A stretch of DNA of 64,000 nt from a candidate division WOR-3 bacterium (GTDB taxonomy: Bacteria; Hydrothermota; Hydrothermia; JBDRYB01), in contig JBDRYB010000001.1 in the NCBI GenBank assembly GCA_039803205.1, positions 23,998 to 87,997 on the forward strand, given 5' to 3'. The position numbers and the translations under genes were made by a program. Below the pieces are notes generated by a model. It worked only from the letters and a program-made list of their open reading frames with translations. It searched no databases and had not been told where the DNA came from. Positions 8,484 to 27,498 of the stretch are shown here, piece after piece (position 1 is the stretch's first letter; the number at the start of each line of letters is the position of its first letter).

Positions 8484-10283
8484 ATGAGAGCCCTCCTGTT
8501 GATCCCTTGGGGTTGTGGGCTTATCCTTGCCCAGGAGAAGATCCTGATCCCCATGGATGCCTCTCAAACAGACCATCTCAGAGCATATGGTGTTGCCTAC
8601 AGGACACTGGCAAGGGGGGTTAATGTTGAGTGGCTTTTGAACTGGGAAGGGGGGAGCTTCATGTGCGATCACAACAAGGCTACAGCGGCCGAGTGCGATT
8701 CCCTCGGGGTTTTATATAGGGTAATATCCCCGTCCGAGGCCTCATCCATACACGCGCGGATAGAGGAGGCGAACGCGAACGCGGTTCTTCTTGAAAAGGC
8801 ACCCAGGGTAGCGGTCTACATCCCGCCATACGAGGAACCATGGGACGATGCAGTTTCCCTTGCTCTTGAATACGCTGGAATACCCTATGACAGGATATGG
8901 GACAGGGAGGTTCTCTCGGGCCAGCTCAGGAAATACGACTGGCTTCACCTTCATCACGAGGACTTCACGGGCCAGTATGGCAAGTTCTATGGTTCATACC
9001 GAAACGCTCCGTGGTATCTTCAACAGGTTGAGATAAACGAGGCGATCGCGAAGGAGCTGGGATACCCCAATGTCCCTGAGGAAAAAAAGGCAGTCGCGAG
9101 GGCAATAAGGGAATATGTATCGGGGGGAGGGTTTCTGTTCGCGATGTGCTCGGGGCCCATTACCATGGACATAGCGCTTGCCGCGGAGGGCATTGACATC
9201 ACCGAGGAGGTGTATGACGGGGATCCGCCTGACCCGGATTTCCAATCAAGGCTTGATTTCAGCAAGGCCATGGCTCTCAAGGACGCGCGGCTCATAACCA
9301 GCCCATACATATACGAGCACTCAGATGTTGATGTAACACGGGAGGCGAGTCTGAGGGGCGAAAATACATATTTCAGCCTCTTTGAGTTCTCAGCGAAATT
9401 TGACCCCGTGCCCACCATGCTCACCCAGGACCACACTGGGGTTGTCAAGGAGTTCATGGGCCAGGATACGGGTTTCCGGAAGGACAAGCTTAAGCCAGAA
9501 GTGGTCGTAATGGGCCAGGTGGAGGGAACCGAGGAGGCAAAATACATATACGGGGCCTACGGAAAGGGCTTCTTCAGCTTTCTCGGAGGCCATGACCCTG
9601 AGGACTACCAGCACATGGTAGGCGACCCCCCGACGGACCTCAGACTCCACAGAAACAGCCCAGGCTACAGGCTCATACTCAACAATGTGCTTTTCCCAGC
9701 GGCCAAAAGGGAAAAATTAAAGACATCGGCGCCCGGATGGGGTTTTGCTCTGGTTGGTGGGCCGAGATACACGACCGCGGCTGGGCATGAATCGCCGGGC
9801 CTGTCCTGGGAAATAAGCGCGCTTGGACTCATGGGAATCTCCGCGGGACTAACGAGCGGCCTTGGTTTCGGATTATCATGGTTTGATAGCAGGTCAGGGG
9901 ATCTTCCGAATGGGGGCTGCGGCGAGGGTTACCTGGGGAAAGGTTTCAACGGAAGGCTCACTCTTATATGGGATCCCATGGCTGAAAGGATCTCGCAAAC
10001 CATCAGGCCACGGCTTACAGCAGAGGCTATCCTTTTCGGCATCCATTACCGCTATGAAGAAAGGGGTGCAGGTGGAACCCGTGTCTCTCCATGCACCTGG
10101 CGCGTTTTGCCTGTCATCCAGATGAGCGCTGGAGCGACCCTGGGGCCTCATCTGCAGATTGATCTTTCTGTTGCGACCGGGGCGGCCGCGCCAGGAGTCC
10201 ATCCCGGTGAAACAATCGGTTATCCGGCATACCCGTGGTCCTTTGCCCTTACCAGCAGGCTCTGGTCCCAAAAACGCGCATGA
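8484..10283 (+). CDS. secreted hypothetical protein (possible amidotransferase-like fold, possible C-terminal beta-rich domain)
   Basis: Signal-peptide-like N-terminus (MRALLLIPWGCGLILA); GGGFLFAMCSGP motif; stop overlaps the start of the next radical SAM gene. Confidence 0.5.
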   Translation: MRALLLIPWGCGLILAQEKILIPMDASQTDHLRAYGVAYRTLARGVNVEWLLNWEGGSFMCDHNKATAAECDSLGVLYRVISPSEASSIHARIEEANANAVLLEKAPRVAVYIPPYEEPWDDAVSLALEYAGIPYDRIWDREVLSGQLRKYDWLHLHHEDFTGQYGKFYGSYRNAPWYLQQVEINEAIAKELGYPNVPEEKKAVARAIREYVSGGGFLFAMCSGPITMDIALAAEGIDITEEVYDGDPPDPDFQSRLDFSKAMALKDARLITSPYIYEHSDVDVTREASLRGENTYFSLFEFSAKFDPVPTMLTQDHTGVVKEFMGQDTGFRKDKLKPEVVVMGQVEGTEEAKYIYGAYGKGFFSFLGGHDPEDYQHMVGDPPTDLRLHRNSPGYRLILNNVLFPAAKREKLKTSAPGWGFALVGGPRYTTAAGHESPGLSWEISALGLMGISAGLTSGLGFGLSWFDSRSGDLPNGGCGEGYLGKGFNGRLTLIWDPMAERISQTIRPRLTAEAILFGIHYRYEERGAGGTRVSPCTWRVLPVIQMSAGATLGPHLQIDLSVATGAAAPGVHPGETIGYPAYPWSFALTSRLWSQKRA

Positions 10284-11626
10284 TAATCGCAGAACCCCAG
10301 CTGATTGAACGCCTCGCTCTTTGGGCAATAAAGGAGCGAATTCCATTTCTGGGGCACTTTGGTCTCACGAGGCACTGCAACCTCATGTGCAGTTTCTGTC
10401 TGTGGGGGAAAAAACTGAAGCCTCGCGGTTTCATGTCACAGTTCCTTTTCAAAAAAGCCCTCTCGGAAATGAAGGAAATGGGCACCTTTGAGATAGAGCT
10501 GACGGGGGGCGATCCTCTTCTTCATCCGCATCTGCCTGATTTCATAAGGATAGCAACCGATCTCAGATTCGTGATAGCGATAACAACCAACGGCCTCAGG
10601 TTAACAGAAAGAAACCTGTCTGCGATAAAGGAGGGCCTGATCGCGCATGTTTCAGTGAGCATTCACGGAGCTAAGCCCGAAACCCACGACAGAATAGTGG
10701 GAAGACCAGGGGCCTGGAATATATCCCTCCGCAACATGGAGAAGCTTCTGGATAGTGGCGTAAGAACTATTGTTTGCTTCGTGATCACCAAGGAAAATCA
10801 CCAGGAAGTCAAAAATGCCAAAGCCCTCTTTGAGAGCATGGGAGCCAGGTTTCAGATGGTCCTGAAGTTGTATAATCCCTTCTGTCTTGAAGAAGTTGAG
10901 GCCTTGAAGCTCAGGGGCCATGCCCTCGCGGATCTGATGGGCCTCTTCCCTGATCCGCCGGTGTGCCCTCATCCTTGCGGCGCTTTCATGAACGCGGTAT
11001 ATATCAACCCCAACGGAGATGTTTGGCCCTGTATATCATTTCCCTTTAACCTGGGCAACATCGGTAAAACTAGCTTCAGGGAAATATGGGAAGGGATAAA
11101 CAAGGAGACCAGGGCGCTCCGGAGAAACCTTGTCCGCGCGAGAGAGAAGGGAGTCTACCGCGGAGTAGAGTATTTTTGCCCATCAATAAGTCGTGGATAT
11201 GACGGTTCTCTGGGAGGCCTTGAACCCCATGTAAAGGAGATAATAGACGCCTGGTTGAATGAGAGAAACGAATCGGCCAAGAGCAATTTTTCCCTGGATG
11301 AAGTAGTGTCCCCGGACAGACAAATCGCTATAAAGCTCGGGGAAAATCATGGATTCGTTCCCGAGGACGATGTTGCCTTCAGGTTACTGAGGGGAAGGGA
11401 AGAGACCTACCTTGTTCTTTGGAAGAGATCCACGAGGAGATATGCGGCTCTGGAGGGTCCCTGGGCGGAAGCGGTGAGCTGTATCCTCTCTGGCCAAAGG
11501 ATCAAGGATGCCCTAAAAATTTTGGAATCATCATTTAAGGGGTTCCGCATGAGCGAGGCCATAGTGGACATGGAAGCTCTTCTCAGCGAAATAGCCGGCA
11601 TGGGTTTCATCAAACTTGCCATTTGA
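10280..11626 (+). CDS. radical SAM/SPASM domain protein with C-terminal PqqD-like (RRE-like) extension
   Basis: CNLMCSFC radical SAM motif; cysteine-rich SPASM region (CPHPCGAF...WPCISFP, CPSIS); about 90-aa C-terminal tail resembling PqqD-type peptide-binding domains. Confidence 0.8.
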   Translation: MIIAEPQLIERLALWAIKERIPFLGHFGLTRHCNLMCSFCLWGKKLKPRGFMSQFLFKKALSEMKEMGTFEIELTGGDPLLHPHLPDFIRIATDLRFVIAITTNGLRLTERNLSAIKEGLIAHVSVSIHGAKPETHDRIVGRPGAWNISLRNMEKLLDSGVRTIVCFVITKENHQEVKNAKALFESMGARFQMVLKLYNPFCLEEVEALKLRGHALADLMGLFPDPPVCPHPCGAFMNAVYINPNGDVWPCISFPFNLGNIGKTSFREIWEGINKETRALRRNLVRAREKGVYRGVEYFCPSISRGYDGSLGGLEPHVKEIIDAWLNERNESAKSNFSLDEVVSPDRQIAIKLGENHGFVPEDDVAFRLLRGREETYLVLWKRSTRRYAALEGPWAEAVSCILSGQRIKDALKILESSFKGFRMSEAIVDMEALLSEIAGMGFIKLAI

Positions 11627-11664
11627 TCCGGATCACTTATCCGGATTCATGGCCCGGTTAAGCG

Positions 11665-11829
11665 CTATTCCTTTTTCGGAGGCGGCGGTGCTGCCTTAGC
11701 GACCCCTGTGAGGCTCAGGACATCAGCATTCCTTTCCGTGGCCAATATCCTCGGTTTCTCGTAAGGCTTTACCACACGGTCCTTTATCCTCGGGACCCTT
11801 CTTCCCTTATCCTCAGAAGATTTTGCCAT
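11665..11829 (-). CDS. candidate small basic protein (54 aa), unannotated
   Basis: Manual translation MAKSSEDKGRRVPRIKDRVVKPYEKPRILATERNADVLSLTGVAKAAPPPPKKE; AAGGA about 10 nt upstream of ATG; could be a chance ORF. Confidence 0.2.
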   Translation of the reverse strand: MAKSSEDKGRRVPRIKDRVVKPYEKPRILATERNADVLSLTGVAKAAPPPPKKE

Positions 11830-11843
11830 AATTATATCCTTCA

Positions 11844-12176
11844 TGGAGGCGGGGGGATTCGAACCCCCGTCCAGAGACCCAACCCGTAAAGCACCTACAC
11901 GCTTAGCTCGCCCTATTAACGCTCTGGAGGCTGGGCGAGCGAGCCCTTCCAGAGGTTTGCCCCTCTGTTTAACCGGACCCGCGGGGCACGAGCCCGGCGA
12001 CCCCGGATCTATGAGGCCCTTCTGGCGCGTCCGGGGAGCGCGGCCAGAGAACCTACGCCCTCAATTAGGCGTATGCGTATGCCTTTTCGGCAGTTATCTT
12101 TGCCGCTTTTTACGGGATGCGGCAACCCGACGTGCGCTTTATCGGGTCTATGGCCCTGTCAAGACCATTCGCCCCC
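11844..12176 (-). ncRNA. ssrA: transfer-messenger RNA (tmRNA, SsrA)
   Basis: 5' GGGGGCG pairs with 3' CGCCUCC acceptor stem including a G3:U70 pair, discriminator A, T-arm GGGGGUUCGAAUCCCCC; internal resume region GUAAAAAGCGGCAAAGAUAACU-GCC...UAA; CCA not encoded; the plus-strand ORF 11843..12184 is its antisense shadow. Confidence 0.85.
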
Positions 12177-12252
12177 AAAGCTAAGGCATATATAATAAAG
12201 GTTTTGCCGTGGAGGATCAAGTGCTTTTATGAGCGGGAATCTCTGGGACCCT

Positions 12253-12807
12253 CTAAATATCAATCAAAATCACCTTTATTGGCACGGCTGGAAAATGCCT
12301 CTTTAACCTCTCAATGTCCTCAATAAGCTGCTCTCCGTAGGAAACGCCGGATGACATTTCCTTGTGTAAGGCATAGGCAGGGACTATTTCTACGCCAGCA
12401 TCACAGTGGCCCTCGTTAAAGAAATACTGGAACTTAGCAAGATCGTAGAACATGAAAGCATACTTGCCCAGCTGAACTTCAACCAGAACCCTATCCTTCT
12501 GGAAATCTATCTGTTTAAACACCTTCACTGAATCAGAAACAAGTCTTTCGTCTTCGTATGGAAACCTCATATCATGATAGCTGCGGAGCTCCTTGAAGCC
12601 TCGCTTTGCAAACGCCCACCTGAACGCTCGGTTCATTTCCTTCGGATCGTAAAGGAGCTTACCTATCTTACCTTTCTCCTTGCTGATCTTGGTCTTCGTA
12701 GCTTGCACTTCTTCTATGATCTCGTCTATTTCGGACTCAATTACAGGGTATCTAACTCTCAATATCTCAAGCCCGCCCAAGTGCGAATACTCATAAACCT
12801 TTCTCAT
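12253..12807 (-). CDS. type II restriction endonuclease, BglII/BamHI-like fold (putative)
   Basis: 184 aa immediately downstream of and overlapping a DNA methyltransferase gene; D-x9-E-V-Q arrangement (IDFQKDRVLVEVQ) resembles the BglII active site; AT-richer than surroundings. Confidence 0.55.
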   Translation of the reverse strand: MRKVYEYSHLGGLEILRVRYPVIESEIDEIIEEVQATKTKISKEKGKIGKLLYDPKEMNRAFRWAFAKRGFKELRSYHDMRFPYEDERLVSDSVKVFKQIDFQKDRVLVEVQLGKYAFMFYDLAKFQYFFNEGHCDAGVEIVPAYALHKEMSSGVSYGEQLIEDIERLKRHFPAVPIKVILIDI

Positions 12808-13766
12808 AAGAGACTATCCTCCCAGGGTTGTTTTTTACCCGGCGGCTCATATATGGGCGTCCCCATCTCCCGAAGTCTAAGCTTGCCGCAGGAGAACAAA
12901 TTCAACCTTTCAAGCCCTATTTTGTAATATCTTTCATTTATCTCTGCTCCGACAAAGCGCCTTCTGTGCTTTATGGCCGCAATCGCGGATGAAGCCACGC
13001 CCATGAATGGATCGAAGACCCACTCGTCCTCGTTTGTTAATGAGAGGACAAGTCTCTCTATCAGCTCAACCGGAAACTGAGCTGGGTGCTCGGTCTTCTC
13101 CGGGTGATTACACTTGACATTCGGTATATCCCAGACATCTGTAGGGTTCTTGCCTAGGGGATTACAGGAAGGCTTACCTTTATTCGGCCCTTTGTGGAAC
13201 TTCTTGCCCGGATACCTCTGAGGAACCCGAACAGCATCAAGGTTAAAGACATAGGGCTCGCCCTTAGTGAACCACATTATAACCTCGTATCTACCAGAAA
13301 ATCTCTTGGACGCGTGAAGCCCGTGCCTGAAGTGCCATACTATCCGGTTGCGCATTACGAGGCCGAGATCCCTGAAAATAGGATAAAGCAGATAATCTAT
13401 TGGGATTATACTGCTGTTTTTAACCCAATTTCCGACCTGCCAGCATATAGAACCCCCGGTCTTTGTCACTCGTAAAGCCTCTTTTATTATCTCTCTGTGC
13501 CACCTTACATATTCATCAAGATCCATCTTTTGCTCGTATTCCTTGCCTATGTTGTATGGAGGAGAGGTTACTGTGAGCTGGACGCTTTCATCCGGTATGA
13601 AACGCACCAGATCAAAAGCTGAGCCCAGATAAAGGCAGGCCTGTGCAGAGCTATCATAGGTGTTCGTTATCCGTATTTCTCTCTGTTGGTGGGGAACATC
13701 CAACAGAACCGAAGCCTTGCCATTCAGAAGATCAGAAAGAATCCCCAAAGAATCTCGCTCTGCCAT
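12804..13766 (-). CDS. DNA methyltransferase, beta-class (N4-cytosine or N6-adenine)
   Basis: TSPPY motif IV near the N-terminus and DPFMGVASS motif I near the C-terminus (order IV then I). Confidence 0.85.
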   Translation of the reverse strand: MAERDSLGILSDLLNGKASVLLDVPHQQREIRITNTYDSSAQACLYLGSAFDLVRFIPDESVQLTVTSPPYNIGKEYEQKMDLDEYVRWHREIIKEALRVTKTGGSICWQVGNWVKNSSIIPIDYLLYPIFRDLGLVMRNRIVWHFRHGLHASKRFSGRYEVIMWFTKGEPYVFNLDAVRVPQRYPGKKFHKGPNKGKPSCNPLGKNPTDVWDIPNVKCNHPEKTEHPAQFPVELIERLVLSLTNEDEWVFDPFMGVASSAIAAIKHRRRFVGAEINERYYKIGLERLNLFSCGKLRLREMGTPIYEPPGKKQPWEDSLL

Positions 13767-13793: not shown

Positions 13794-14822
13794 CTACGGT
13801 TCAAACACCCCAGGAACCCTCACTCCGCAATCCGGACACCTCCCCTCCTTTAACCTATTTTCAAGAAGGGAAAACCGCCACCTCCTTATGAGGGTTTTCC
13901 CGCAGGATGGGCAACGGGTATCCTCAAGCCCTCTCATTTCCCTGTTCCCGGGGTATACGAACAGTAAGCCCTCTTCACGGCCTATCTCCATGGCTTTCGT
14001 GATGGAGGAGACAGAAGTCGGGGGGATGCTGTGGACCTTGTAGGCAGGGTAAAAACCGGAGATGTGCCACGGGGTCTCAGGGCCAAGCTCCTGAGCTACG
14101 AACCTGGCCATTTCTCTGATCTCCCCCTCAGAATCGTTCACCCCTGGAACAAGGAGGGTGGTTACCTCAACCCACACCCCCATGCTCTTCATTATTTTCA
14201 ACGCATTCATCACTGGCCTAGGCCTCCCGCCGGTCCATTTCTGCATGGAGGACTTGTTCACAAACTTGAAATCAACATTGGCCGCGTCCAACAATCCCTT
14301 CAACTCACAAAGCGGTTTCGGGTTTATGAACCCATTCGTAACCCAATTGTTCTTTAGGCCTCGCTCCTTCGCCATTCTCATGGTGTCTAAAGCATATTCA
14401 TAGTATATCGTGGGTTCGGTGTATGTGTAGCTTATTGAGGGAACTCCAGCGCTCAGCGCGGCCCTGACTATCTCATTTGGCGGAACCTGTTTTCTCGCAA
14501 GGGCATCCATGGTCCTGGGCTCAAGAACCGGCAGTTGGCTTATCTCCCAGTTTTGGCACCAGAGGCAGGATAGATTACAGCCGGGCGCGGCAACCGAGAG
14601 GCTCGCGGTTCCTGGCAGAAAGTGATAGAGCGGCTTTTTTTCAATGGGGTCTATGTGCGCGGCAATGAGAACGCCGTAATTCAGGCTGATGAGCTCATGG
14701 CCCCGTCTCTCCCTAACCCCGCAGGTGCCGCGCTCGCCTTCTCTGAGCCTACAAGAATGGGGGCACAGGTTGCAGATGATCTCCTGATCCTTCTGGGTGA
14801 AAAAAAGCGCCTTTCTGCTCAT
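13794..14822 (-). CDS. AmmeMemoRadiSam-system radical SAM enzyme (AmrS-like)
   Basis: CNLCPHSC plus CNLSCLWCQNWEIS motifs and HIDPIEKKPLYHFLPG block typical of the AmrS / PFL-activase-like family. Confidence 0.75.
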   Translation of the reverse strand: MSRKALFFTQKDQEIICNLCPHSCRLREGERGTCGVRERRGHELISLNYGVLIAAHIDPIEKKPLYHFLPGTASLSVAAPGCNLSCLWCQNWEISQLPVLEPRTMDALARKQVPPNEIVRAALSAGVPSISYTYTEPTIYYEYALDTMRMAKERGLKNNWVTNGFINPKPLCELKGLLDAANVDFKFVNKSSMQKWTGGRPRPVMNALKIMKSMGVWVEVTTLLVPGVNDSEGEIREMARFVAQELGPETPWHISGFYPAYKVHSIPPTSVSSITKAMEIGREEGLLFVYPGNREMRGLEDTRCPSCGKTLIRRWRFSLLENRLKEGRCPDCGVRVPGVFEP

Positions 14823-14876
14823 CAAAACCCCCATAATAGCGGGAATATCACCTGGGCAACCATGGAGGGATTGCCC

Positions 14877-16950: not shown

Positions 16951-18030
16951 CTATTTGCCAAGCTGACCCCACGACGAGACCACCTTCATCCGGAACCTGA
17001 GGCTGTCAGCCTTCGCCTCCTGACCCCTCTCCTCGTAGAGGTAGGCGGCGCGGCCCAATTCCTCACCCGCCTCAGCGTAGCGCTCGGTCTCCAGGTAAAG
17101 GAAAGCAATGAGCTCGTGGAGCCGAGGGTCATTCCTCATTTTCATGGCCTGCCTGTAGTGTTCCTCGGCCATCCCGAACAGGGTCTCGTCCCCCTTTTCC
17201 CTGGCCATGCTCCAAAGGAGGGATGCATATTCCTCGTGTGTTGTGGGGTTATAAGGGTCCTGTTGAAGGGAAAGTATGTAGCAGTTTTCAGCCTCCTTGT
17301 AGTTCCCCATAGCCCATGAACACCTCGCCATCTCCCTGAGCCCAGAGGGATCAAGCCTGTATGCCTCAAATGCCTGATCAAAGGAAACAGGGGCGTTATC
17401 TCGCGAACAAGCAATGAGCGCGCTTATTGGTTCTGGTTCAACCACATAAGCTACCCCGCTCCTTCCTGTGGCTGTTATCATTCCGACCACAACCCTCTGA
17501 GGACCGTATATGGGATCGCTGATGAGGGGCGAGCCGCTGTATCCGGGAACAGGCCCAGCTGAGATAACGAGGTTTCTCACCCCATCGCTCCAGGTCTCTT
17601 CCCTCAGAAAATCCAAACGCAGGGGCCTGAGGACAAATGAGCCCTGATTCCTGGCTCCCCAGGGATATGGAACGACCACCCCTGAGAGCCTGGCCTGATT
17701 ACTGGTCCCAATGGCAAGAAGGTTTCTCGTCGTATCCTTGACCGAGAGCAGACATATGTCGTTTTTTGGGTCCATTCCGAGAAGGCCCACTACTGGTATG
17801 CTATTTCCATCCCTTTTAAGGATGCGGATCTGCTTGATCCTGTCTTTTGGGCTCTGCGGGAACACTACATGACAACAAGTTGCTACCACGCCCCTGTCCA
17901 CGAAAAACCCGGTTCCGCGGCAGCTCCCGGATGCGAATTCTGCCTCTACGCCGACAACAGCCATGGTATCCACGCTTTCTAAATACCAAGGCACGCTCCC
18001 CACTAAGAGGACGGCGAGAAGCATGCTCAT
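16951..18030 (-). CDS. trypsin-like serine protease with C-terminal TPR repeats
   Basis: GTGFFV...CCHVV (His), DICLL (Asp), GYSGSPL (Ser) triad context; C-terminal helical TPR-like region. Confidence 0.7.
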   Translation of the reverse strand: MSMLLAVLLVGSVPWYLESVDTMAVVGVEAEFASGSCRGTGFFVDRGVVATCCHVVFPQSPKDRIKQIRILKRDGNSIPVVGLLGMDPKNDICLLSVKDTTRNLLAIGTSNQARLSGVVVPYPWGARNQGSFVLRPLRLDFLREETWSDGVRNLVISAGPVPGYSGSPLISDPIYGPQRVVVGMITATGRSGVAYVVEPEPISALIACSRDNAPVSFDQAFEAYRLDPSGLREMARCSWAMGNYKEAENCYILSLQQDPYNPTTHEEYASLLWSMAREKGDETLFGMAEEHYRQAMKMRNDPRLHELIAFLYLETERYAEAGEELGRAAYLYEERGQEAKADSLRFRMKVVSSWGQLGK

Positions 18031-18096
18031 ATTCTAAGGGAAACACTGTCCGCGATCAAGTTGGAATCCCCCTGGGTTCCGGGTTATAATCTCAGC

Positions 18097-18618
18097 ATGC
18101 CACTTATCCTGCCGTTCGAGGGAAAGTCTCCGAGGATCCGGGATGCCATATTCATAGCAGAGACAGCGGTTATCACCGGGGATGTTGAGCTCGGACCCGG
18201 AACATCCGTGTGGTATGGAGCGATCCTGAGGGGCGACACGAACAGCATAAGGATAGGGGAAAACACGAACATCCAGGACCTCTGCGTGCTCCACGGGGAT
18301 GCTGATTGGCCTGTTAAGGTAGGCAAGAGGGTGACGATAGGCCATGGCGCGATAGTCCACGGTTGCGAAATAGGGGATGACTGCCTTATCGGCATGGCCT
18401 CAGTGATAATGAACGGCTGTGTTGTCGGCCCTGAAAGCATAATAGCGGGCGGGACGGTTCTCACCCCAGGGAGCCAGATACCTCCGAGGAGCCTGGTTGC
18501 TGGGGTTCCCGGTAAAGTAAAACGAGAGCTCAGCCAGGAGGAGATTGACGGGCTCATCCGTCACTCCTGGGAGGTGTATGTGGAGCTGGCACACAGGAAC
18601 AGGAAGGGGAGTATTTGA
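18097..18618 (+). CDS. gamma-class carbonic anhydrase family protein (hexapeptide repeat)
   Basis: Left-handed beta-helix hexapeptide repeats; start at ATG 18097. Confidence 0.85.
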   Translation: MPLILPFEGKSPRIRDAIFIAETAVITGDVELGPGTSVWYGAILRGDTNSIRIGENTNIQDLCVLHGDADWPVKVGKRVTIGHGAIVHGCEIGDDCLIGMASVIMNGCVVGPESIIAGGTVLTPGSQIPPRSLVAGVPGKVKRELSQEEIDGLIRHSWEVYVELAHRNRKGSI

Positions 18619-19709
18619 GCGCTTTACTCGCTTTAGGGATCACAGCCGGGGGCGGAAGGATAACCCTCCCTCCTGTGATTGTCATGGTTCCATTATCAGG
18701 AGAGGTAGCCCCCTTAGGTGAGGAGTTCCTGAGGGGATGGAGAATGGCAGTGGGGGATGCCCTGAACTATGAGGTCGTTGACACATATGCATCCCCGGAC
18801 TCCGTGCTCAAGATCCTCAACATTTTGGCTGGTAGCGATGGAGCATCGCTGATCGTGGGGCCGTTGCTCTCGGTGACATCCCTGCCGGCCGCTGATTTCG
18901 CCATGCGCAACCGCATCCCCATACTCCTGCCCACGGCAACTGACCTCAGGTTGGGGACTTTCGGCAGTTATGTCTTTCCCTTCAATTACAATCTGTTCCT
19001 TGAAACCGCATACATAATGGAAGTGATGAGCGAACGCATGAGCAGGTCCGATTGGCTAATACTTTACACGGACATGGCCGAGGACAGGGCGATAACAGGA
19101 TGGTTCATCTCCCAATCAACGGAGTTCGGCATAGGCATCATGGATACCCTCGTGTATTCGGAAACCGAGATGGTGTATGATGGGCTTTCAAAGGCAGTGG
19201 TTGGGAAGAATCCAAAGGTAGTCTTCGCCCCTAGGGGCTCAAGGGCCTCCGCCCTGTTATTTCTTTCCCTGAGGAAGCGCGGCCTAAAGTGCCCTGTTGT
19301 GGGCCTTGATGGATGGCTTTCTCCGGATGTGGCGGAGATAGTTTCTGGCGCTATGGGAGGGCTTTATGTGGTTGGGCCAGAAAGGGGGGATTTCATGGCC
19401 AGGGCCCTTGCCCAGGCGCACAGGGAGGACTTTGAGGAAAGATACAGGGCTGAGTCTGGTTCGCCTCCCTCAGAGGTTGCGGGGAGGGGCTACGATGCTG
19501 GCTGTATAGCAAAGGAGGTCTGCTTTGACAATCCGGACAGGGAAACCGTGAAAAGGAGGCTTTTGCTCATGGGAGTCTACAAGGGGGTCACGGGGGACAT
19601 AATGCTCTCAAAGGACCCCAGGCTCCTGGCTGTATATACCCTGAAAAAGGGTGGATTCAAAAAGGAAGAAAGCTATGGCAAAGAAGAAGAAAAAAAAGGA
19701 AAGCCTTGA
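18615..19709 (+). CDS. periplasmic substrate-binding protein (type I PBP-like)
   Basis: 364 aa with PBP-like alternating pattern; weakly supported; start is TTG in the track. Confidence 0.5.
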   Translation: MSALLALGITAGGGRITLPPVIVMVPLSGEVAPLGEEFLRGWRMAVGDALNYEVVDTYASPDSVLKILNILAGSDGASLIVGPLLSVTSLPAADFAMRNRIPILLPTATDLRLGTFGSYVFPFNYNLFLETAYIMEVMSERMSRSDWLILYTDMAEDRAITGWFISQSTEFGIGIMDTLVYSETEMVYDGLSKAVVGKNPKVVFAPRGSRASALLFLSLRKRGLKCPVVGLDGWLSPDVAEIVSGAMGGLYVVGPERGDFMARALAQAHREDFEERYRAESGSPPSEVAGRGYDAGCIAKEVCFDNPDRETVKRRLLLMGVYKGVTGDIMLSKDPRLLAVYTLKKGGFKKEESYGKEEEKKGKP

Positions 19710-20097
19710 GGAGAGGCTGAGAAGGGCCGCGGCCAAGGAGAAGACCGAGGAACCAAAGCTAAAGGTGCCATCCAAGGTCGCTGAGGAAAGGGCCGCGATG
19801 GGCGGCGTGAAGCTCAGACGGCCAACGAGGTTATCCCAGGAACCCGTCGTGAAGACCGAGACGCCCTTTGGGCCCCTGAATTGGTGGCTCCTCGCCGGAG
19901 GCGTGATCCTGGCCGCTGTCGGGTTCGTGTTCCTGTATCTCGGTGATACCATAATCTCAACGACCCTGCTGGTCATGGGCTACTGCGTTGTTATACCCGT
20001 AGCGCTCTTAATCAGTCCCAATATACTCAAGAGGAAGCCGAAGGAAGAAGGCGAGACCGCCCAAGGGCCTGAGACACAAGAGGGGGACAAGGGCTAG
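19675..20097 (+). CDS. small membrane protein with lysine-rich N-terminus
   Basis: AAGGAAG RBS before ATG 19675; two predicted TM helices; overlaps the previous gene end across an A-rich tract. Confidence 0.4.
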   Translation: MAKKKKKKESLEERLRRAAAKEKTEEPKLKVPSKVAEERAAMGGVKLRRPTRLSQEPVVKTETPFGPLNWWLLAGGVILAAVGFVFLYLGDTIISTTLLVMGYCVVIPVALLISPNILKRKPKEEGETAQGPETQEGDKG

Positions 20098-20196
20098 CGC
20101 GAACCGGACGAGGCTGTTTGGGGTTTCTGGGTATTAACTATGGCCTAATCAACTGATGGCCTGGCTCTTGAAAGAGTGGCCGCGGGACTCGTAAAG

Positions 20197-21006
20197 TCAT
20201 TTCCTTATAAGCTTATTCAACAATTCTTCGCCTCTGGTAGTTCCAACCTCACGAAATACATCCAAAACAGCTTCGTAAGAACCTTCACCACCAATAAAAT
20301 CCCAGAATTCTTTGCCAATTAATATCTCATTATTCAGATCAAATAAAGAGAGGGTAAATCCCCACTTATAATTCACCTTTTCTTCGCCCCAGGGATTATA
20401 GGGGAAGCAAAATTTATAAACTCCATTCGGACCAATACCTGCTATAAAATAAAGGAACTTTTCTTTAGTTTGTGAACAAACATCCTTATTTGGCTCCGGA
20501 CTTTTTATCTCAAAAAAGTATTTTTTATCATTTTTATCCTCCAAATAAAGATCAGCTCTCAACAGAATCTCTTGACCTTCACTAGAAGAAGGCTCCAACC
20601 GAGGCAAGGGGGGTGGCGGATAGGGTCTCTCCTTCTTCCTTTTTACATTTTCTATAAAGGTAGCAATTGATTCCTTTATCCTATTATTTGTAGGAATTGC
20701 AAGGGTATAGTTTCGTTCCACCTTAACCCAAAAAGTATTATCGCTAGCTATAAGTTGTGCAATGTACTCAAATACCCCTTGCCCCAATGAAGTGTCAAAC
20801 GATCTGAAAAAGCTATGAAGTCTAAGAAAGTGGGGAGGAAGCAAAGCGGTGTGGAATGGCTTATATTTTCCTTTTTTAGGATCTAACCATACCTGTTTTA
20901 TAACAGCATTTTTCACAACATCCGGATCATACTTATTGACCAGACCTTGCAAAAATCCTTCTAGATATCCGATTATATTCTTTCGCGTAGTATCTTTTAG
21001 TTTCAT
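20197..21006 (-). CDS. putative type II restriction endonuclease
   Basis: 269-aa ORF directly downstream of and overlapping a DNA methyltransferase gene in a markedly AT-rich segment; assignment by context only. Confidence 0.4.
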   Translation of the reverse strand: MKLKDTTRKNIIGYLEGFLQGLVNKYDPDVVKNAVIKQVWLDPKKGKYKPFHTALLPPHFLRLHSFFRSFDTSLGQGVFEYIAQLIASDNTFWVKVERNYTLAIPTNNRIKESIATFIENVKRKKERPYPPPPLPRLEPSSSEGQEILLRADLYLEDKNDKKYFFEIKSPEPNKDVCSQTKEKFLYFIAGIGPNGVYKFCFPYNPWGEEKVNYKWGFTLSLFDLNNEILIGKEFWDFIGGEGSYEAVLDVFREVGTTRGEELLNKLIRK

Positions 21007-22373
21007 TCTTTGTATCCTTTCTGTAGAAATAAAACATATTCATATCTAAGTTTCGCAAACCCCCCCAGAATTGGCCTTCTCATAGCATAGACATCAGAAA
21101 AGCCTATTTCTGGAGCCCAGCTCTCTATCTTTTGACAAAAGTCGGTTCTTTTCCCGTCCACCACTACATCTCCCAATACTATGGCGGCCCATGCTCCTGG
21201 TTTCAGAACCCGGTGCATCTCTTCAACGCTTTTTCTAATGTCCTCCTCGTAGAACAATAATTTTTTATCTTTACCCCCCCTTAGACCCACCATTTGCTCT
21301 CTTAGCGGCGAGGTATCTATGCCCAAATAAGTAAGCAAGTGAAAGTCATTCTTCACATAGTCCAGGGCAATACTGTAAGGTGGGGAGGTTATTATTCCCG
21401 TTATGCTGTTGTCAGTGACCGGAAGGGCCATGGCCGAAGCAAGCTTTATCTCCGGTGCTTTAGGTTCCAGATTTAATTTCTTTAGAGTGAAATAGGTTCC
21501 CTTTATTGTCTGAAGGTATTCCGAAAGATTGATCAGGAAGAACTTTTCAAAAGACTTTTCTTTGGCTGTGCCCTTTAGATAAGTATAATCGGACAGGGCA
21601 TGTAGATATGCTAACAGCAGGAAATTCCTTATCTCAAAAGGTAGTTCTTTGATTTGAGAAGAGGGAAAACGAAATTCCCAGACATAATCAAGAATTTCTT
21701 TGGCATCAACCGGTTCGCTTTCGGGTAAGAATTTCTTGGTTTCAAGCTTTGCCGTCTTAAAGTATTCAAATATTCGTAACGGGGAACCTATCTGGTTTAT
21801 CGCGCTGTTCAGCTCATCATAGTTAATTCTCAGAGAATCTGTTTTTATTTGGGACACAATGCAAAGCGCAGGATTAATGTCTATCCCCAGTCCACCGGTT
21901 CTGAGGAGCGCTGTTTCCACAAGGGTGGTTCCTGATCCCAAAAACGGATCAAGGATGATATCCTCCTCGCCGGCGCCCATGAAGTTTATTATAGCCTTGA
22001 TCATCTGGCCGTGAAACTTGCCCTTGTAAGGGTAGAACCAGTGGGTCATGTATTGATTGCTATTTCCTATCTGACCCTTACCCCTTACTTTGGCTATTGA
22101 GGAGTGATAGCTGGGTTTCCCATCTACTATTTCAAAGTATGCTGACCTTTTCCGGAAGAGATCAAGGTCCTTCCCTAAGGTGGAGAACTCCATCCTTGCC
22201 AATTGAAGCTCATAAATCTGGCCAGCATCATCAAAGAGTTTGAAGCCGTTTCCGGGAAGGATGCCGCCAGTAGCCCAGGAAACAGGATCTATGGATTCTC
22301 CAAGAACACTCCGTAGAGAGACGGCATTCTCTTCTGTTTTTACTGGAAACAAGGCCTTTGCCTTCACCTTCAT
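21003..22373 (-). CDS. DNA methyltransferase (motif I DPFLGSGTT, motif IV TSPPY)
   Basis: Both MTase motifs present; start set at ATG 22373 preceded by GGAGG, just downstream of the purS stop. Confidence 0.8.
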   Translation of the reverse strand: MKVKAKALFPVKTEENAVSLRSVLGESIDPVSWATGGILPGNGFKLFDDAGQIYELQLARMEFSTLGKDLDLFRKRSAYFEIVDGKPSYHSSIAKVRGKGQIGNSNQYMTHWFYPYKGKFHGQMIKAIINFMGAGEEDIILDPFLGSGTTLVETALLRTGGLGIDINPALCIVSQIKTDSLRINYDELNSAINQIGSPLRIFEYFKTAKLETKKFLPESEPVDAKEILDYVWEFRFPSSQIKELPFEIRNFLLLAYLHALSDYTYLKGTAKEKSFEKFFLINLSEYLQTIKGTYFTLKKLNLEPKAPEIKLASAMALPVTDNSITGIITSPPYSIALDYVKNDFHLLTYLGIDTSPLREQMVGLRGGKDKKLLFYEEDIRKSVEEMHRVLKPGAWAAIVLGDVVVDGKRTDFCQKIESWAPEIGFSDVYAMRRPILGGFAKLRYEYVLFLQKGYKE

Positions 22374-22389
22374 ATTATACACCTCCCCT

Positions 22390-22641
22390 TCATTCCCTCT
22401 CCTCCATCTCATACCAGAACCTCTCTATTACCGGATTGGTGAGGAGTCTGCGGGACACATCCTCTATCTGAGCGCGCGCTGAGGCCTCGTCCGGAGCCTC
22501 AAGCGAAAACCGAACTATCTTTCCAACGCGCCCCTCTGAGACCGAAAGCCCAAGCCGCCTCATCGCGGCCTCAACAGCCATGCCCTGTGGATCTCTGAGA
22601 TCGTCGTGGGGCAGAATGAAGACATGAACCAGGTATCTCAT
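22390..22641 (-). CDS. purS: phosphoribosylformylglycinamidine synthase subunit PurS
   Basis: 83 aa with typical PurS sequence; adjacent to purC. Confidence 0.85.
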   Translation of the reverse strand: MRYLVHVFILPHDDLRDPQGMAVEAAMRRLGLSVSEGRVGKIVRFSLEAPDEASARAQIEDVSRRLLTNPVIERFWYEMEERE

Positions 22642-23330
22642 TCCAATCTCCTAGCGACCTCTCTGTAGGTCTCAAGCACATCCCCCTTGTCCTCCCTGAA
22701 GACATCCTTGTCCAGGCTCTCACCATCAGGCGTCCATAAGCGCATGGTATCAGGGCTTATCTCATCAGCAAGATAAAGCTTTCCATCATCGCCCACACCG
22801 AACTCAAACTTCATGTCCACGAGCTCAAGCCCTTTCTGAGCGAAAAGCCCCTTGAGGGCTATCCCTGCATCCAAGGCAATCTTCTGCATCTCCTGCACTT
22901 GCTCCTCGTCAGCGATGCCGAGAGCGAGAACGGTCATTGGGCATATCAGTGGGTCATGGAGGGAATCGTCCTTCAGGGTAAATTCCACGAGGGGGATCTC
23001 CAAGCGTCTCCCCCTTTCAATCCCATAACGCTTGCAGAGGGAGCCAGCGGCCCTGAAGCGAACCAGAACCTCAAGGGGTATTATCCTCACTCGGCGTGCC
23101 AGGAAGCTGGTGGCTGATAGTTGACCGAGGAAATGCGTCCTTATGCCCTTGCTCTCCAAGAACTGGAAGAGTTTGACGGATATTCCGCAATTCAAGGCTC
23201 CCTTTCCCTCAACGGTTGCCCTTTTCAGGGCGTCAAAAGCGGTTAAAGAATCCTTGAAATGGATTATAACCCTGCCTGGCTCATCAGCCTCGTATACCTG
23301 TTTTGCTTTGCCCTCGTGGAGGAGCTTCAT
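22638..23330 (-). CDS. purC: phosphoribosylaminoimidazole-succinocarboxamide synthase
   Basis: SAICAR synthetase pattern from MKLLHEGKAKQVYEAD; start trimmed to the internal ATG. Confidence 0.9.
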   Translation of the reverse strand: MKLLHEGKAKQVYEADEPGRVIIHFKDSLTAFDALKRATVEGKGALNCGISVKLFQFLESKGIRTHFLGQLSATSFLARRVRIIPLEVLVRFRAAGSLCKRYGIERGRRLEIPLVEFTLKDDSLHDPLICPMTVLALGIADEEQVQEMQKIALDAGIALKGLFAQKGLELVDMKFEFGVGDDGKLYLADEISPDTMRLWTPDGESLDKDVFREDKGDVLETYREVARRLE

Positions 23331-23344
23331 GCTGAGATTATAAC

Positions 23345-23486: not shown

Positions 23487-23822
23487 ATGCGTAAAAAAAT
23501 CAGGCTCATCCACAGGTATTCAAACAGGAAGATGTATGACACGGCAGGGAAAGCCTTCATAACCCTGGGACAGGTCCTGAGGATGATCGCCCAGGGCATA
23601 AGGGTCAAGGTCATAGACAAGGTCTCGGGGATTGATGTGACCAACCTAATAAGGATAAGGGCAATAGCCAATGAGGCAGAGCGTATCGCCAGAAGGATGT
23701 CATCGGCGGCCTCCAGGGACGCGATAAAGCTCCAGGAATTAGCCGTGGAGCTCGGAAACCTCATGAGAGAGATGGCGAGGCTCAGTAGAATAGTGAAAAA
23801 GGAGGCGCAGAATGGAAGTTAA
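23487..23822 (+). CDS. PhaR-like regulator (PHB/PHA accumulation regulator N-terminal DNA-binding domain)
   Basis: HRYSNRKMYDTAGKAFITLGQV matches the PHB_acc_N signature (KkYpNRRLYDT); C-terminal coiled coil. Confidence 0.6.
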   Translation: MRKKIRLIHRYSNRKMYDTAGKAFITLGQVLRMIAQGIRVKVIDKVSGIDVTNLIRIRAIANEAERIARRMSSAASRDAIKLQELAVELGNLMREMARLSRIVKKEAQNGS

Positions 23823-25290
23823 GGCACTATCCCCCAACATATCAAAGCTTCTCAAAGGCGCCAGCGGCCGAGAGATAATAACTAGGCTTTCGGCCCCTGC
23901 CTTCAAAAACAGGGCCGTGAGGAAGGGGCTTCTGCTATACATTAAGTCCCAGATAAACCGAGGGAACTACTCCGCGATCGTTGCGGGGAATAGGCCGCCC
24001 GGAGTCAAAAGGGATGTAGCGTGGGCCGCGTGGGCCTTGTTGAGATCACTAGATAGGGCCATAGAGGACAAAAGGCTCTCTCACAGGTTCGCGGGGAGGC
24101 TGGTTGAGGTTTTTCTGAACAACATGGTGGCAAGCTGGGCCGATAGGGGAGAAATAAGCGGGTTTTTCAAAAACAAGGGGGAGAAAGGCCCGCCCGGTTT
24201 CCTGGTCATCAGCCCCGCTAAGGCGTGCAACCTCAGGTGTCCGGATTGCTACGCGGCCTCAGGCGCAAACCCTGAGAAGCTCAGCGCGCGCGAGTTCCGG
24301 AGGATAATCACGGAGGCAAAGGAGCTCTGGGGGGTCCGTTTCTTCGTGATCTCCGGCGGAGAACCTTTTCTATGGAGGGACGGGGATACCCGGTTCCTTG
24401 ATGTGGTTGAGGAAAACCCCGATTGCTTTTTCATGGTTTATACGAACGGAACCCTGATAGAGGATGAGGTCGCTGACAGGCTCTCAGAGCTCGCTAATCT
24501 TACCCCGGCAATATCCCTGGAGGGCTTTGAGGAGGAGACGGACAGCAGAAGGGGAAAGGGCACATACGAGAAGGTCCTCGGCGCAATGGCAAGGCTCAGA
24601 AAGAGGGGTATACCCTTCGGAATATCCCTCACTGCTACCAAGAGAAATTACAGGCTTCTGCTTTCTGATGGGTTCCTCAGCGAGTTCTTTGAGCGTCAGG
24701 GCGCGACATACGGTTGGATATTCCAGTATATGCCCATAGGCAGGGATCTGGATCTCTCGCTGATGCCAAGCCCGGAAGAAAGGCTATGGATGTGGAGGCG
24801 CGGGTGGGATGTGATAAGGAAGAAGGGTTATTTCCTGATGGACTTCTGGAACCAGGGAACGGTCTCAGCCGGGTGCATATCTGGCGGAAGGCACACGGGA
24901 TACCTTTACATAGACTGGAACGCTAATGTGTATCCGTGCGTCTTTGTTCCCTATGCCGGCGCGAACCTCAGGGAGATATACGCCAGGGGAGGGACGATAA
25001 CCGAGGCTTACGATTCGCCGCTTTTCAGGGCAATAAGGCGATGGCACGACGCTTACGGGTATGGTAAAACAGAGCCCAATAAGCACAAGAACTGGCTCGC
25101 GCCGTGCCTCATAAGGGATCACTTCCGCGTGCTCAAGAGGCTTGTGGAAAGACACGGGGCAAGGCCGGCGGATACGGTGGCCGCTGAGCTCATAAAAAAC
25201 CCCGAACACGGGGCATTCATGGAGGAATACGATAGGGTTTTCTCTGAGCTCACTCAACCGATATGGAAAAAGGAATATCTAGGGCCGTAG
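23812..25290 (+). CDS. radical SAM protein with about 130-aa N-terminal extension and C-terminal auxiliary Cys cluster
   Basis: CNLRCPDC motif; GGEPF; downstream cysteines (GCISGG...YPCVFVP, APCLI) suggest an auxiliary Fe-S (SPASM/twitch-like) region. Confidence 0.75.
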   Translation: MEVKALSPNISKLLKGASGREIITRLSAPAFKNRAVRKGLLLYIKSQINRGNYSAIVAGNRPPGVKRDVAWAAWALLRSLDRAIEDKRLSHRFAGRLVEVFLNNMVASWADRGEISGFFKNKGEKGPPGFLVISPAKACNLRCPDCYAASGANPEKLSAREFRRIITEAKELWGVRFFVISGGEPFLWRDGDTRFLDVVEENPDCFFMVYTNGTLIEDEVADRLSELANLTPAISLEGFEEETDSRRGKGTYEKVLGAMARLRKRGIPFGISLTATKRNYRLLLSDGFLSEFFERQGATYGWIFQYMPIGRDLDLSLMPSPEERLWMWRRGWDVIRKKGYFLMDFWNQGTVSAGCISGGRHTGYLYIDWNANVYPCVFVPYAGANLREIYARGGTITEAYDSPLFRAIRRWHDAYGYGKTEPNKHKNWLAPCLIRDHFRVLKRLVERHGARPADTVAAELIKNPEHGAFMEEYDRVFSELTQPIWKKEYLGP

Positions 25291-25942: not shown

Positions 25943-26476
25943 ATGGCCAAAATAAGACAAAATGTGCTTTCCGGAATAGGCAAGCTCTTTCTGAGAGCCG
26001 CGAAACGAGGCCTCATGCCAAAGAGGATCGCTTATACACTCGTCGGTCTCGCCACATCCCTTACAGGCGCGTCAAAAGGCCCCTGCGCTGTGATGTGCTA
26101 TGAGGTTCCACCAACAGAACCGTGGATCTCTAGGGTTCTGATCACCAAGAATCCGCTGAGGGGCAAATTCAGGCTAACAGCCACCATAAAAAGCAACGAG
26201 AGGCCTGTGGGCGGTGCTGATGTCAATTTTTGGGTATGGAAGGATGGCCAGGCAGAGGTGTTTCGCGTTGTCCCCATGAACCCGGCTGATGGGGCGTTTG
26301 ATTCTCTAACGGAGGAGGCATATGCCGATCTGGCCCTATGGGGATGGCCCCAAGGAACGAAGATGAACATTTCCGCTTACGACAAGGATGGGAATCACGG
26401 CACCCCACTCAGGATTGGCGTTGAGGTGATGTTCGGGATCCTTTCATTTGAATGCGAGGAGATAGTGGGCTATTGA
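25943..26476 (+). CDS. hypothetical protein
   Basis: 177-aa ORF whose end overlaps the start of the downstream radical SAM/SPASM gene. Confidence 0.35.
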   Translation: MAKIRQNVLSGIGKLFLRAAKRGLMPKRIAYTLVGLATSLTGASKGPCAVMCYEVPPTEPWISRVLITKNPLRGKFRLTATIKSNERPVGGADVNFWVWKDGQAEVFRVVPMNPADGAFDSLTEEAYADLALWGWPQGTKMNISAYDKDGNHGTPLRIGVEVMFGILSFECEEIVGY

Positions 26477-27498
26477 GCGACAAACCAGTTCTCGCGGCCG
26501 CTTTTGAGACAACTCCCAGGTGCAACGCCAACTGTTTGTATTGTTATAATGTCTGGAAGGCTCATCCGGACTATCCAAGGGGGGAACCGGACGCGGAGGG
26601 TCTCCTCCGGGTCCTTGATGCCATCCTTAAGAGCGAGCGGGTGACCATCGTGAGCCTAACCGGCGGAGAGCCACTGCTTCTGGGCGATCTCATCCTTGAG
26701 ATGGGCGCTATGGCGAGGCTTTCAGGAAAATCCGTGAACCTCGTCACCAACGGTTCTCTTATCAGCAAAGGCTTTGCCAAGAACCTCAAGAGGCTCAGCA
26801 TAAGGCCCGTAGAGATAACCCTCCTATCAGCAAGGGAGGAGTTGCACGATTCCTTGCAAAGAGCGAGGACATTCCGGAGCGCAGTTAGCGCCATAAGGAC
26901 AGTGGCTGATGTCGGCGGGGAAGCAATAGTTGGCATAGTCGGAACGAAAGCAAACATTCCCTTTCTCTCCGAGACCCTTGAATTCGCAAAGACCCTCGGA
27001 GCCAAGGGCGCCATGTTCACCAGGTTCAACCCCGGCGGCCAGGGGCTTAGGCACTGGCGGGAGCTCGGGCCTTCCAAGGAGGAACTCAGGTCAGCCATAA
27101 AAACCCTTATGAAATTTGCCGACGAAAACCCAAACCTGACTATAACCTGCGGCGTTCCTATTCCCCCATGCGTTCTAGGTTTCACTGACTACGGAAGGGT
27201 AAAGATGGGTTATTGCAACGCTGGGGGCGATCTCATAGCCATAGATTGGCTCGGAAACCTCCGTCCGTGCAACCATTCCTCCCTTATAGTGGGGAACATA
27301 CTCAAGGTGCCCCTTGATGAGCTTCTGGAATCAAAGCGGTTAAAGGATTTCATGCTCCCTGTGCCTAAGATGTGCGTCGGTTGCCAGTTCTACGATCTAT
27401 GCAAGGGGGGTTGCCGGGCCGCGGCATTTGAGATGGCTTGGTGGCTCAGGAAGGAAAGGTCTGCTGGGTCCATCCGGTTTTCCGGACACACCATCTAG
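26452..27498 (+). CDS. radical SAM/SPASM domain protein
   Basis: CNANCLYC radical SAM motif; SPASM cysteines (CNAGGD...LRPC, CVGCQFYDLCKGGC). Confidence 0.8.
   Translation: MRGDSGLLSDKPVLAAAFETTPRCNANCLYCYNVWKAHPDYPRGEPDAEGLLRVLDAILKSERVTIVSLTGGEPLLLGDLILEMGAMARLSGKSVNLVTNGSLISKGFAKNLKRLSIRPVEITLLSAREELHDSLQRARTFRSAVSAIRTVADVGGEAIVGIVGTKANIPFLSETLEFAKTLGAKGAMFTRFNPGGQGLRHWRELGPSKEELRSAIKTLMKFADENPNLTITCGVPIPPCVLGFTDYGRVKMGYCNAGGDLIAIDWLGNLRPCNHSSLIVGNILKVPLDELLESKRLKDFMLPVPKMCVGCQFYDLCKGGCRAAAFEMAWWLRKERSAGSIRFSGHTI

Follow-up and report, generated by a model that had tools for sequence, protein, structure and literature searches.

A divergent TdeIII-family type II restriction-modification gene pair, predicted behind purS in a candidate division WOR-3 bacterium

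What does the AT-rich segment directly behind the purine-biosynthesis gene purS of a candidate division WOR-3 bacterium encode, and how did it come to lie there? The segment spans positions 20197–22373 of a 64,000-nucleotide stretch of contig JBDRYB010000001.1, part of a metagenome-assembled genome, and this whole stretch is referred to as the window. We find that it very probably represents an intact, horizontally acquired type IIP restriction-modification pair, consisting of a DNA methyltransferase gene and a restriction endonuclease gene of the TdeIII family. That the two proteins form an active type II system is predicted with high confidence from their sequences. The system is of a known kind in a divergent form, and the NCBI annotation already recognizes both proteins, naming them "DNA methyltransferase" and "TdeIII family type II restriction endonuclease."

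A predicted methyltransferase and endonuclease in a segment of low GC

The composition of the segment sets it apart, as the initial annotation had noted: its guanine plus cytosine (GC) content is 41.2%, compared with 53.5% over the 64-kb window, which makes it the minimum among all stretches of 2177 bp, about 4.9 standard deviations under their mean. Per gene, GC is 36.9% for the endonuclease and 43.8% for the methyltransferase, and at third codon positions the respective values are 0.33 and 0.47, against 0.62–0.72 in six neighboring host genes. Both genes are open reading frames (ORFs) on the reverse strand. The methyltransferase gene (21003–22373) encodes 456 amino acids (aa) from an ATG at 22373; the endonuclease gene (20197–21006) encodes 269 aa. 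The overlap of the methyltransferase with this 269-aa ORF, also described initially, is read from the sequence as an ATGA at 21003–21006, in which the stop TGA of the former and the start ATG of the latter are joined. The two genes are thus adjacent, separate, and on the same strand, which is the layout of a type II (IIP) restriction-modification system.

The distance from the purS stop codon (TGA, 22390–22392) to the methyltransferase ATG had been given as 17 bp, and by sequence it is 16 nucleotides (nt): the gap consists of AGGGGAGGTGTATAAT. The stretch reads AGGGGAGGTG TATAAT and then the ATG, and it contains a strong Shine–Dalgarno sequence (GGAGGTG, 22380–22386, reverse strand) 6 nt upstream of the start. 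The NCBI record of the methyltransferase has 469 aa and starts at an ATG at 22412; we rejected this start in favor of 22373, because it has no Shine–Dalgarno sequence and would overlap purS by 23 nt. Genes called independently on another assembly agree with the start at 22373, the methyltransferase having 456 aa there as well. The contig has also been assembled from SRR27730023.

The 269-aa ORF had been considered a likely cognate endonuclease, and family membership, active site, fold, and linkage to the same kind of methyltransferase all point in this direction. The Pfam profile RE_TdeIII (PF09520) covers the protein over profile positions 5–242 of 242 at 175.4 bits (cutoff 27.2, E=1.9e-51), and PADLOC models of type II restriction enzymes match it as well. 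Across 36 aligned endonuclease homologues D152 and K168 never vary, E or D occupies position 166 throughout, and E80 is nearly invariant; every residue that is invariant among the homologues is present in the protein from the window. D152, E166, and K168 are the predicted catalytic residues and constitute a classical PD...(D/E)xK nuclease signature. The structure model displays a restriction-enzyme fold with the PD-(D/E)XK core of type II enzymes, and its best structural match is EcoO109I (PDB 1wtd), with a sequence identity of 11–12%; searching the PDB by sequence returned no match for the endonuclease, EcoO109I being found through fold comparison instead. Sequence and model together predict a type II restriction endonuclease of the TdeIII family, complete in length.

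The alpha class of amino-methyltransferases carries motif I, the recognition domain, and motif IV in this order, and in N4-cytosine enzymes motif IV typically reads SPPY. Both sequence motifs reported initially are present in the 456-aa protein: motif I, DPFLGSGTT, at residues 142–150, and motif IV, TSPPY, at residues 329–333, about 190 residues later. Both (D142-P-F-x-G-S-G-T and T329-S-P-P-Y) are invariant in 33 methyltransferase homologues, and all residues invariant in these homologues are found in the window protein. The N6/N4 DNA methylase profile PF01555 matches at 48.8 bits (cutoff 26.7) in two stretches, which are in swapped order relative to the profile, PF01170 matches also, and the MTase_II models of PADLOC match with a best value of 2e-32. 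Among sequences in the PDB, the best matches are the solved cytosine-N4 methyltransferases 8s9n and 8s9m, which align only locally and again in swapped order. In the AlphaFold2 model (predicted local distance difference test score, pLDDT, 86), motifs I and IV are separated by some 130–190 residues of mostly helical insert, with the helical target-recognition insert at about residues 170–300. Motif I, insert, and motif IV hence follow one another as in the alpha class, permuted with respect to beta-class enzymes, and motif IV is of the SPPY type of N4-cytosine DNA methyltransferases (EC 2.1.1.113). On these sequence features we assign the protein to the alpha-class amino-methyltransferases, and its specificity is probably for N4 of cytosine.

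Flanking synteny and homologous pairs elsewhere

To the right of the pair lie the host genes purS (22390–22641, reverse strand; Pfam PurS) and, directly upstream of it, purC (22638–23330, reverse strand; Pfam SAICAR_synt). The longest ORF of purC has 291 aa (GTG at 23513), and the gene product is probably of 230 aa (ATG at 23330), as called on a Logan contig. To the left, a spacer of 99 bp with host-like composition (20098–20196; fold z-score −0.97) separates the endonuclease stop codon from a convergent gene for a small membrane protein with two hydrophobic segments (19651–20097, forward strand); no convincing terminator-like site was found in this spacer, where nothing exceeded shuffle expectation.

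Relatives of the locus were found by a PurC scan with one genome per species and by scanning metagenomes for the periplasmic binding protein encoded to the left. The two closest WOR-3 relatives from the PurC scan (L002 and L003; PurC 86–87% identical) have only purC-purS in common with the window (22394–23343, 79–83% nucleotide identity). The similarity goes no further than the stop codon of purS, which is TGA in the window and TAA and TAG in the relatives. In L002, purS is followed by a MiaB-like radical-SAM gene without restriction-modification genes, and the contig of L003 ends 93 bp past purS. The metagenome contig L082 shares the left block instead (window 16951–20051, 74% nucleotide identity), which comprises genes for a protease/TPR protein, a hexapeptide transferase, the periplasmic binding protein, and the membrane protein. 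Its homology breaks off inside the final 50 bp of the gene for the membrane protein, and behind this gene L082 encodes rnpA-yidD-yidC-jag (9928–12658), not restriction-modification genes or purS. The rnpA-yidD-yidC-jag cluster is normally situated near the replication origin. As L082 continues into this cluster, the junction of the window with purS is a rearrangement point, and the pair occupies a breakpoint of synteny.

The proposal of a restriction-modification-like insertion of foreign origin is thereby strengthened: L002, L003, and L082 all lack the pair at whichever flank each of them shares, and this absence, together with the atypical composition, supports horizontal acquisition. The wider picture drawn initially needs qualification. 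The comparison with relatives confirms that they lack the pair and yielded no contiguous empty site. A conserved purine-biosynthesis neighborhood is present insofar as purC-purS adjoin the pair; the purine block consists of these two genes alone, without purQ or purL adjacent, and conservation ends at the breakpoint. The term "island" likewise goes too far, as the features of a genomic island or mobile element are missing from what is a bare two-gene pair: no direct or inverted repeats bound the segment, no tRNA or tmRNA (transfer-messenger RNA) gene lies beside it (the nearest is more than 5 kb away), and no integrase, transposase, or recombinase gene is found next to it, the neighbors being housekeeping genes.

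The distribution of homologous pairs is scattered: many thermophilic archaea carry one, as do some bacteria. The next-best homologues are 50–56% (endonuclease) and 62–66% (methyltransferase) identical, and every organism-named homologue with at least 49% identity is archaeal, from Thermococcus, Methanocaldococcus, Methermicoccus, Methanosarcinales, or Thermoplasmata. Homologues of both proteins are encoded on the same contig in at least 15 cases, and the methyltransferase gene precedes the endonuclease gene in each of the five loci looked up, whose surroundings are unrelated. On one archaeal contig the pair is situated between an AP endonuclease gene and a gene for a metallo-beta-lactamase-fold protein, another pair adjoins an IS605 OrfB fragment and feoAB, and a locus of a more distant branch shows the same order with a methyltransferase of 392 aa. 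In Thermococcus barophilus (CP013050; L086, 3695–5789) and T. gorgonarius (CP014855; L090, 2698–4795) the pair is found between the genes for PolD DP1 and DP2, beside cdc6; it sits inside the replication-origin operon of both species, on the same strand as the housekeeping operon and 6–55 nt from the flanking genes. In three homologous pairs a gap of about 10 nt with its own Shine–Dalgarno sequence takes the place of the ATGA overlap.

In a neighbor-joining tree the endonuclease of the window forms a long sister branch to a clade whose named members are all archaeal. Since it is not nested in this clade, we do not claim a direction of transfer from archaea to bacteria. More distant TdeIII-family endonucleases (about 30% identity) are encoded on Clostridium plasmids (L087 and L089) and in the Streptococcus phage YS162, where their partners are C5-cytosine methyltransferases; in YS162 (L088, 2923–6268) a single C5-methyltransferase gene lies between those for endonucleases of the TdeIII and SinI families. 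Members of one endonuclease family thus have methyltransferase partners of two unrelated kinds. A search of viral contigs and of phage and plasmid records gave no close relatives of the pair, only matches of 26–34% identity, and no vector was identified.

Recognition site, expression, and competing interpretations

As the recognition site we lean toward GGNCC, by analogy with characterized systems. This rests on the family names TdeIII and MjaII, the SinI-family neighbor in phage YS162, the fold match to EcoO109I (which reads RGGNCCY), the SPPY motif, and the precedent of M.TpsD3V. The name MjaII enters through a deposited plasmid record with a split TdeIII-family gene; of its two adjacent fragments, one is labeled "MjaII restriction endonuclease" and the other "type II restriction endonuclease TdeIII." The MjaII enzyme is active (PMC2615612), and M.MjaII was assigned to GGNCC and reported as a 5-methylcytosine (m5C) methyltransferase (PMC11033074). 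For M.TpsD3V of Thioflexothrix psekupsii, a type II alpha enzyme, sequencing by the single-molecule real-time (SMRT) method gave GGNCC with N4-methylcytosine (m4C) (PMC5578853). The UniRef name of the T. barophilus methyltransferase orthologue is that of a site-specific DNA-methyltransferase with a specificity label beginning "(cyt." By Pfam and REBASE descriptions, TdeIII itself presumably recognizes GGNCC.

In the mechanism that we propose, the methyltransferase would methylate N4 of cytosine in the host copies of a short palindrome and thereby protect the host DNA, and the endonuclease, acting as a homodimer of the EcoRI-like branch, would cut unmethylated sites of incoming DNA to leave 5' overhangs, with a cut that is probably G^GNCC-like, as made by EcoO109I. 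Between purS and the methyltransferase gene no sigma-70-like promoter was detected, nothing there being above shuffle expectation. Transcription would probably occur by read-through from purC-purS, because only 16 nt follow purS and these hold no promoter-like site. The ATGA overlap probably couples translation of the endonuclease to that of the methyltransferase, and such coupling, with the methyltransferase first, would favor methylation before restriction; no gene for a controller (C) protein was found at the pair.

A bolder generalization, which we offer tentatively and consider doubtful on balance, is that the pair family might act as an "operon hitch-hiker" without a promoter. Its members would enter essential housekeeping operons, or settle a few nucleotides behind them, on the coding strand, bring only their own ribosome-binding site and use host transcription, and the WOR-3 copy would come from a mostly archaeal lineage that has spread into bacteria. 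The examples are purC-purS in the WOR-3 window and cdc6-PolD DP1/DP2 in the two Thermococcus species. If this held true, losing the expression of the pair or deleting it would be hard without harm to the host.

Four other interpretations have to be weighed against that of an intact, acquired, GGNCC-specific type II pair, and with them the observations that count against it, the first of which is that both read-through and translational coupling are proposed from spacing alone. That the 456-aa protein is a Trm11-like RNA methyltransferase (forming N2-methylguanosine, m2G, in tRNA) and not a DNA methyltransferase could be argued from its best Foldseek matches, which are archaeal Trm11 proteins (E about 4e-8), from the match to PF01170, and from the NCBI label "TRM11 family" on one of its homologues. 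The resemblance is limited to the Rossmann core, and the protein falls outside the Trm11/TIGR01177 family. With scores far under the cutoffs of the tRNA families (TIGR01177, 39.8 bits against 316.55; Trm14, 23.5 against 280), no THUMP domain in a Pfam search, and a steady linkage to a restriction endonuclease, this reading was rejected as scarcely credible; the insert of about 190 helical residues between motifs I and IV is absent from Trm11 as well. A decaying remnant, in which the endonuclease is inactive and the methyltransferase is kept as an orphan or epigenetic methylase, might explain why GGNCC is not strongly avoided and why the methyltransferase gene is the more GC-ameliorated of the two at third codon positions. 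It is improbable, given that both ORFs are of full length without a frameshift, that the endonuclease spans the whole Pfam profile, and that the invariant residues of both homologue sets are all in place.

We think it similarly improbable that the two genes are native and long resident, with a low GC that is intrinsic to the gene family, yet this view draws on most of what speaks against a recent insertion. In each of the three other hosts examined, the homologous pair has a higher AT content than its flanks, and the segment follows the strong host avoidance of ACGT, GTAC, and TCGA, with one site where about ten are expected; low GC is for these two reasons no proof of recent arrival. The long sister branch of the endonuclease, for which no close donor is known, would also suit native genes. 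Furthermore, no relative with both flanks contiguous was found in the genome-collection and metagenome scans, so that a clean empty site cannot be shown, and the single insertion event is one that we infer. Against native genes stand the two nearest WOR-3 genomes and the metagenome relative, which lack the pair at either flank, and the scatter of the family over archaea and bacteria in unrelated contexts, and a foreign origin is therefore the better supported interpretation.

For the specificity, a functional type II system with another site, be it a HinfI-like GANTC, a longer RGGNCCY-type sequence, or a new one, is on the unlikely side in our judgment. The precomputed label of PF09520 in the protein collection is "HinfI," an enzyme that cuts GANTC, and the family may for this reason include several specificities. 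No named family member is more than 56% identical, and with the nearest homologues as distant as given above, the specificity could have drifted; EcoO109I, the best structural match, reads a 7-bp site. With 400 occurrences in the window (observed/expected 0.85), GGNCC shows a mild shortage, much weaker than the depletion of ACGT, GTAC, TCGA, and AGATCT, which might be expected of a different site; it should be noted that avoidance is a weak signature of specificity here, and we rejected it as evidence either way. Set against this, motif IV in its SPPY form and the locally aligned cytosine-N4 methyltransferases indicate cytosine and not adenine as the target base, GANTC shows no depletion (observed/expected 0.99), and the family names TdeIII and MjaII and the SinI neighbor point to GG(N/W)CC. 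GGNCC accordingly remains the site that we favor.

Some further features of the window touch on restriction and site avoidance. A second restriction-modification locus (11844–13766) comprises genes for a BglII-family endonuclease (12253–12807, reverse strand) and a PF01555 methyltransferase (12804–13766, reverse strand), situated 77 nt from a tmRNA gene (11844–12176, reverse strand); tmRNA genes are classic targets for the integration of islands. The window is strongly depleted of the BglII site AGATCT, with 2 observed and 15 expected. Three palindromes of 4 bp are extremely avoided throughout (1–64000), namely ACGT (6 observed, 104 expected), GTAC (6 and 87), and TCGA (18 and 167), and no restriction-modification genes matching this avoidance were seen in the window. 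Radical-SAM/SPASM genes are unusually dense around both restriction-modification loci (10235–11626, 13794–14834, 23812–25290, and 26452–27498).

Comparison with known systems

The pair adds a second active-looking restriction-modification system to this uncultured WOR-3 bacterium, with a predicted N4-methylcytosine mark, probably at GGNCC, and such a mark would be relevant to methylome data, genetic manipulation, and virus–host matching. A specialist in restriction-modification will find nothing surprising here, and the general points are modest: one endonuclease family with two types of methyltransferase, tight wedging into housekeeping operons, and a position at a synteny breakpoint. The C5 partners belong to Firmicutes plasmids and phage, the alpha-class SPPY partner to a thermophile-associated clade.

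Among named systems, the window pair resembles TdeIII of Treponema denticola (endonuclease TDE0911, methyltransferase TDE0909) in being of type II with two genes, and TdeIII has been proven to act as a barrier by restriction in its host (PMC12878829). The likeness of the endonucleases is through membership of PF09520 (175 bits); unlike TdeIII, the window endonuclease falls into a deep branch with named members from thermophilic archaea. EcoO109I is a type IIP enzyme that cuts RG^GNCCY and is assigned to a different Pfam family than the window endonuclease, for which its flanking R/Y specificity need not hold. The MjaII system of Methanocaldococcus jannaschii (MJ1449; GGNCC) is tied to the TdeIII family through the plasmid labels, and its partner is an m5C methyltransferase, whereas the window has an SPPY amino-methyltransferase, so that nonhomologous partners accompany the same endonuclease family. 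M.TpsD3V, compared by description only, has the methylation type, class, and site that are predicted for the window methyltransferase.

The closest parallels are the pairs of the two Thermococcus species, which resemble the window pair in gene order, in identity (54–55% for the methyltransferase, 49–52% for the endonuclease), and in their tight placement, and the leader in T. barophilus carries a near-identical Shine–Dalgarno arrangement, GGGAGGTGT...ATG. They differ in their archaeal hosts, in the insertion between PolD DP1 and DP2 instead of behind purS, and in a short gap between methyltransferase and endonuclease genes where those of the window pair overlap.

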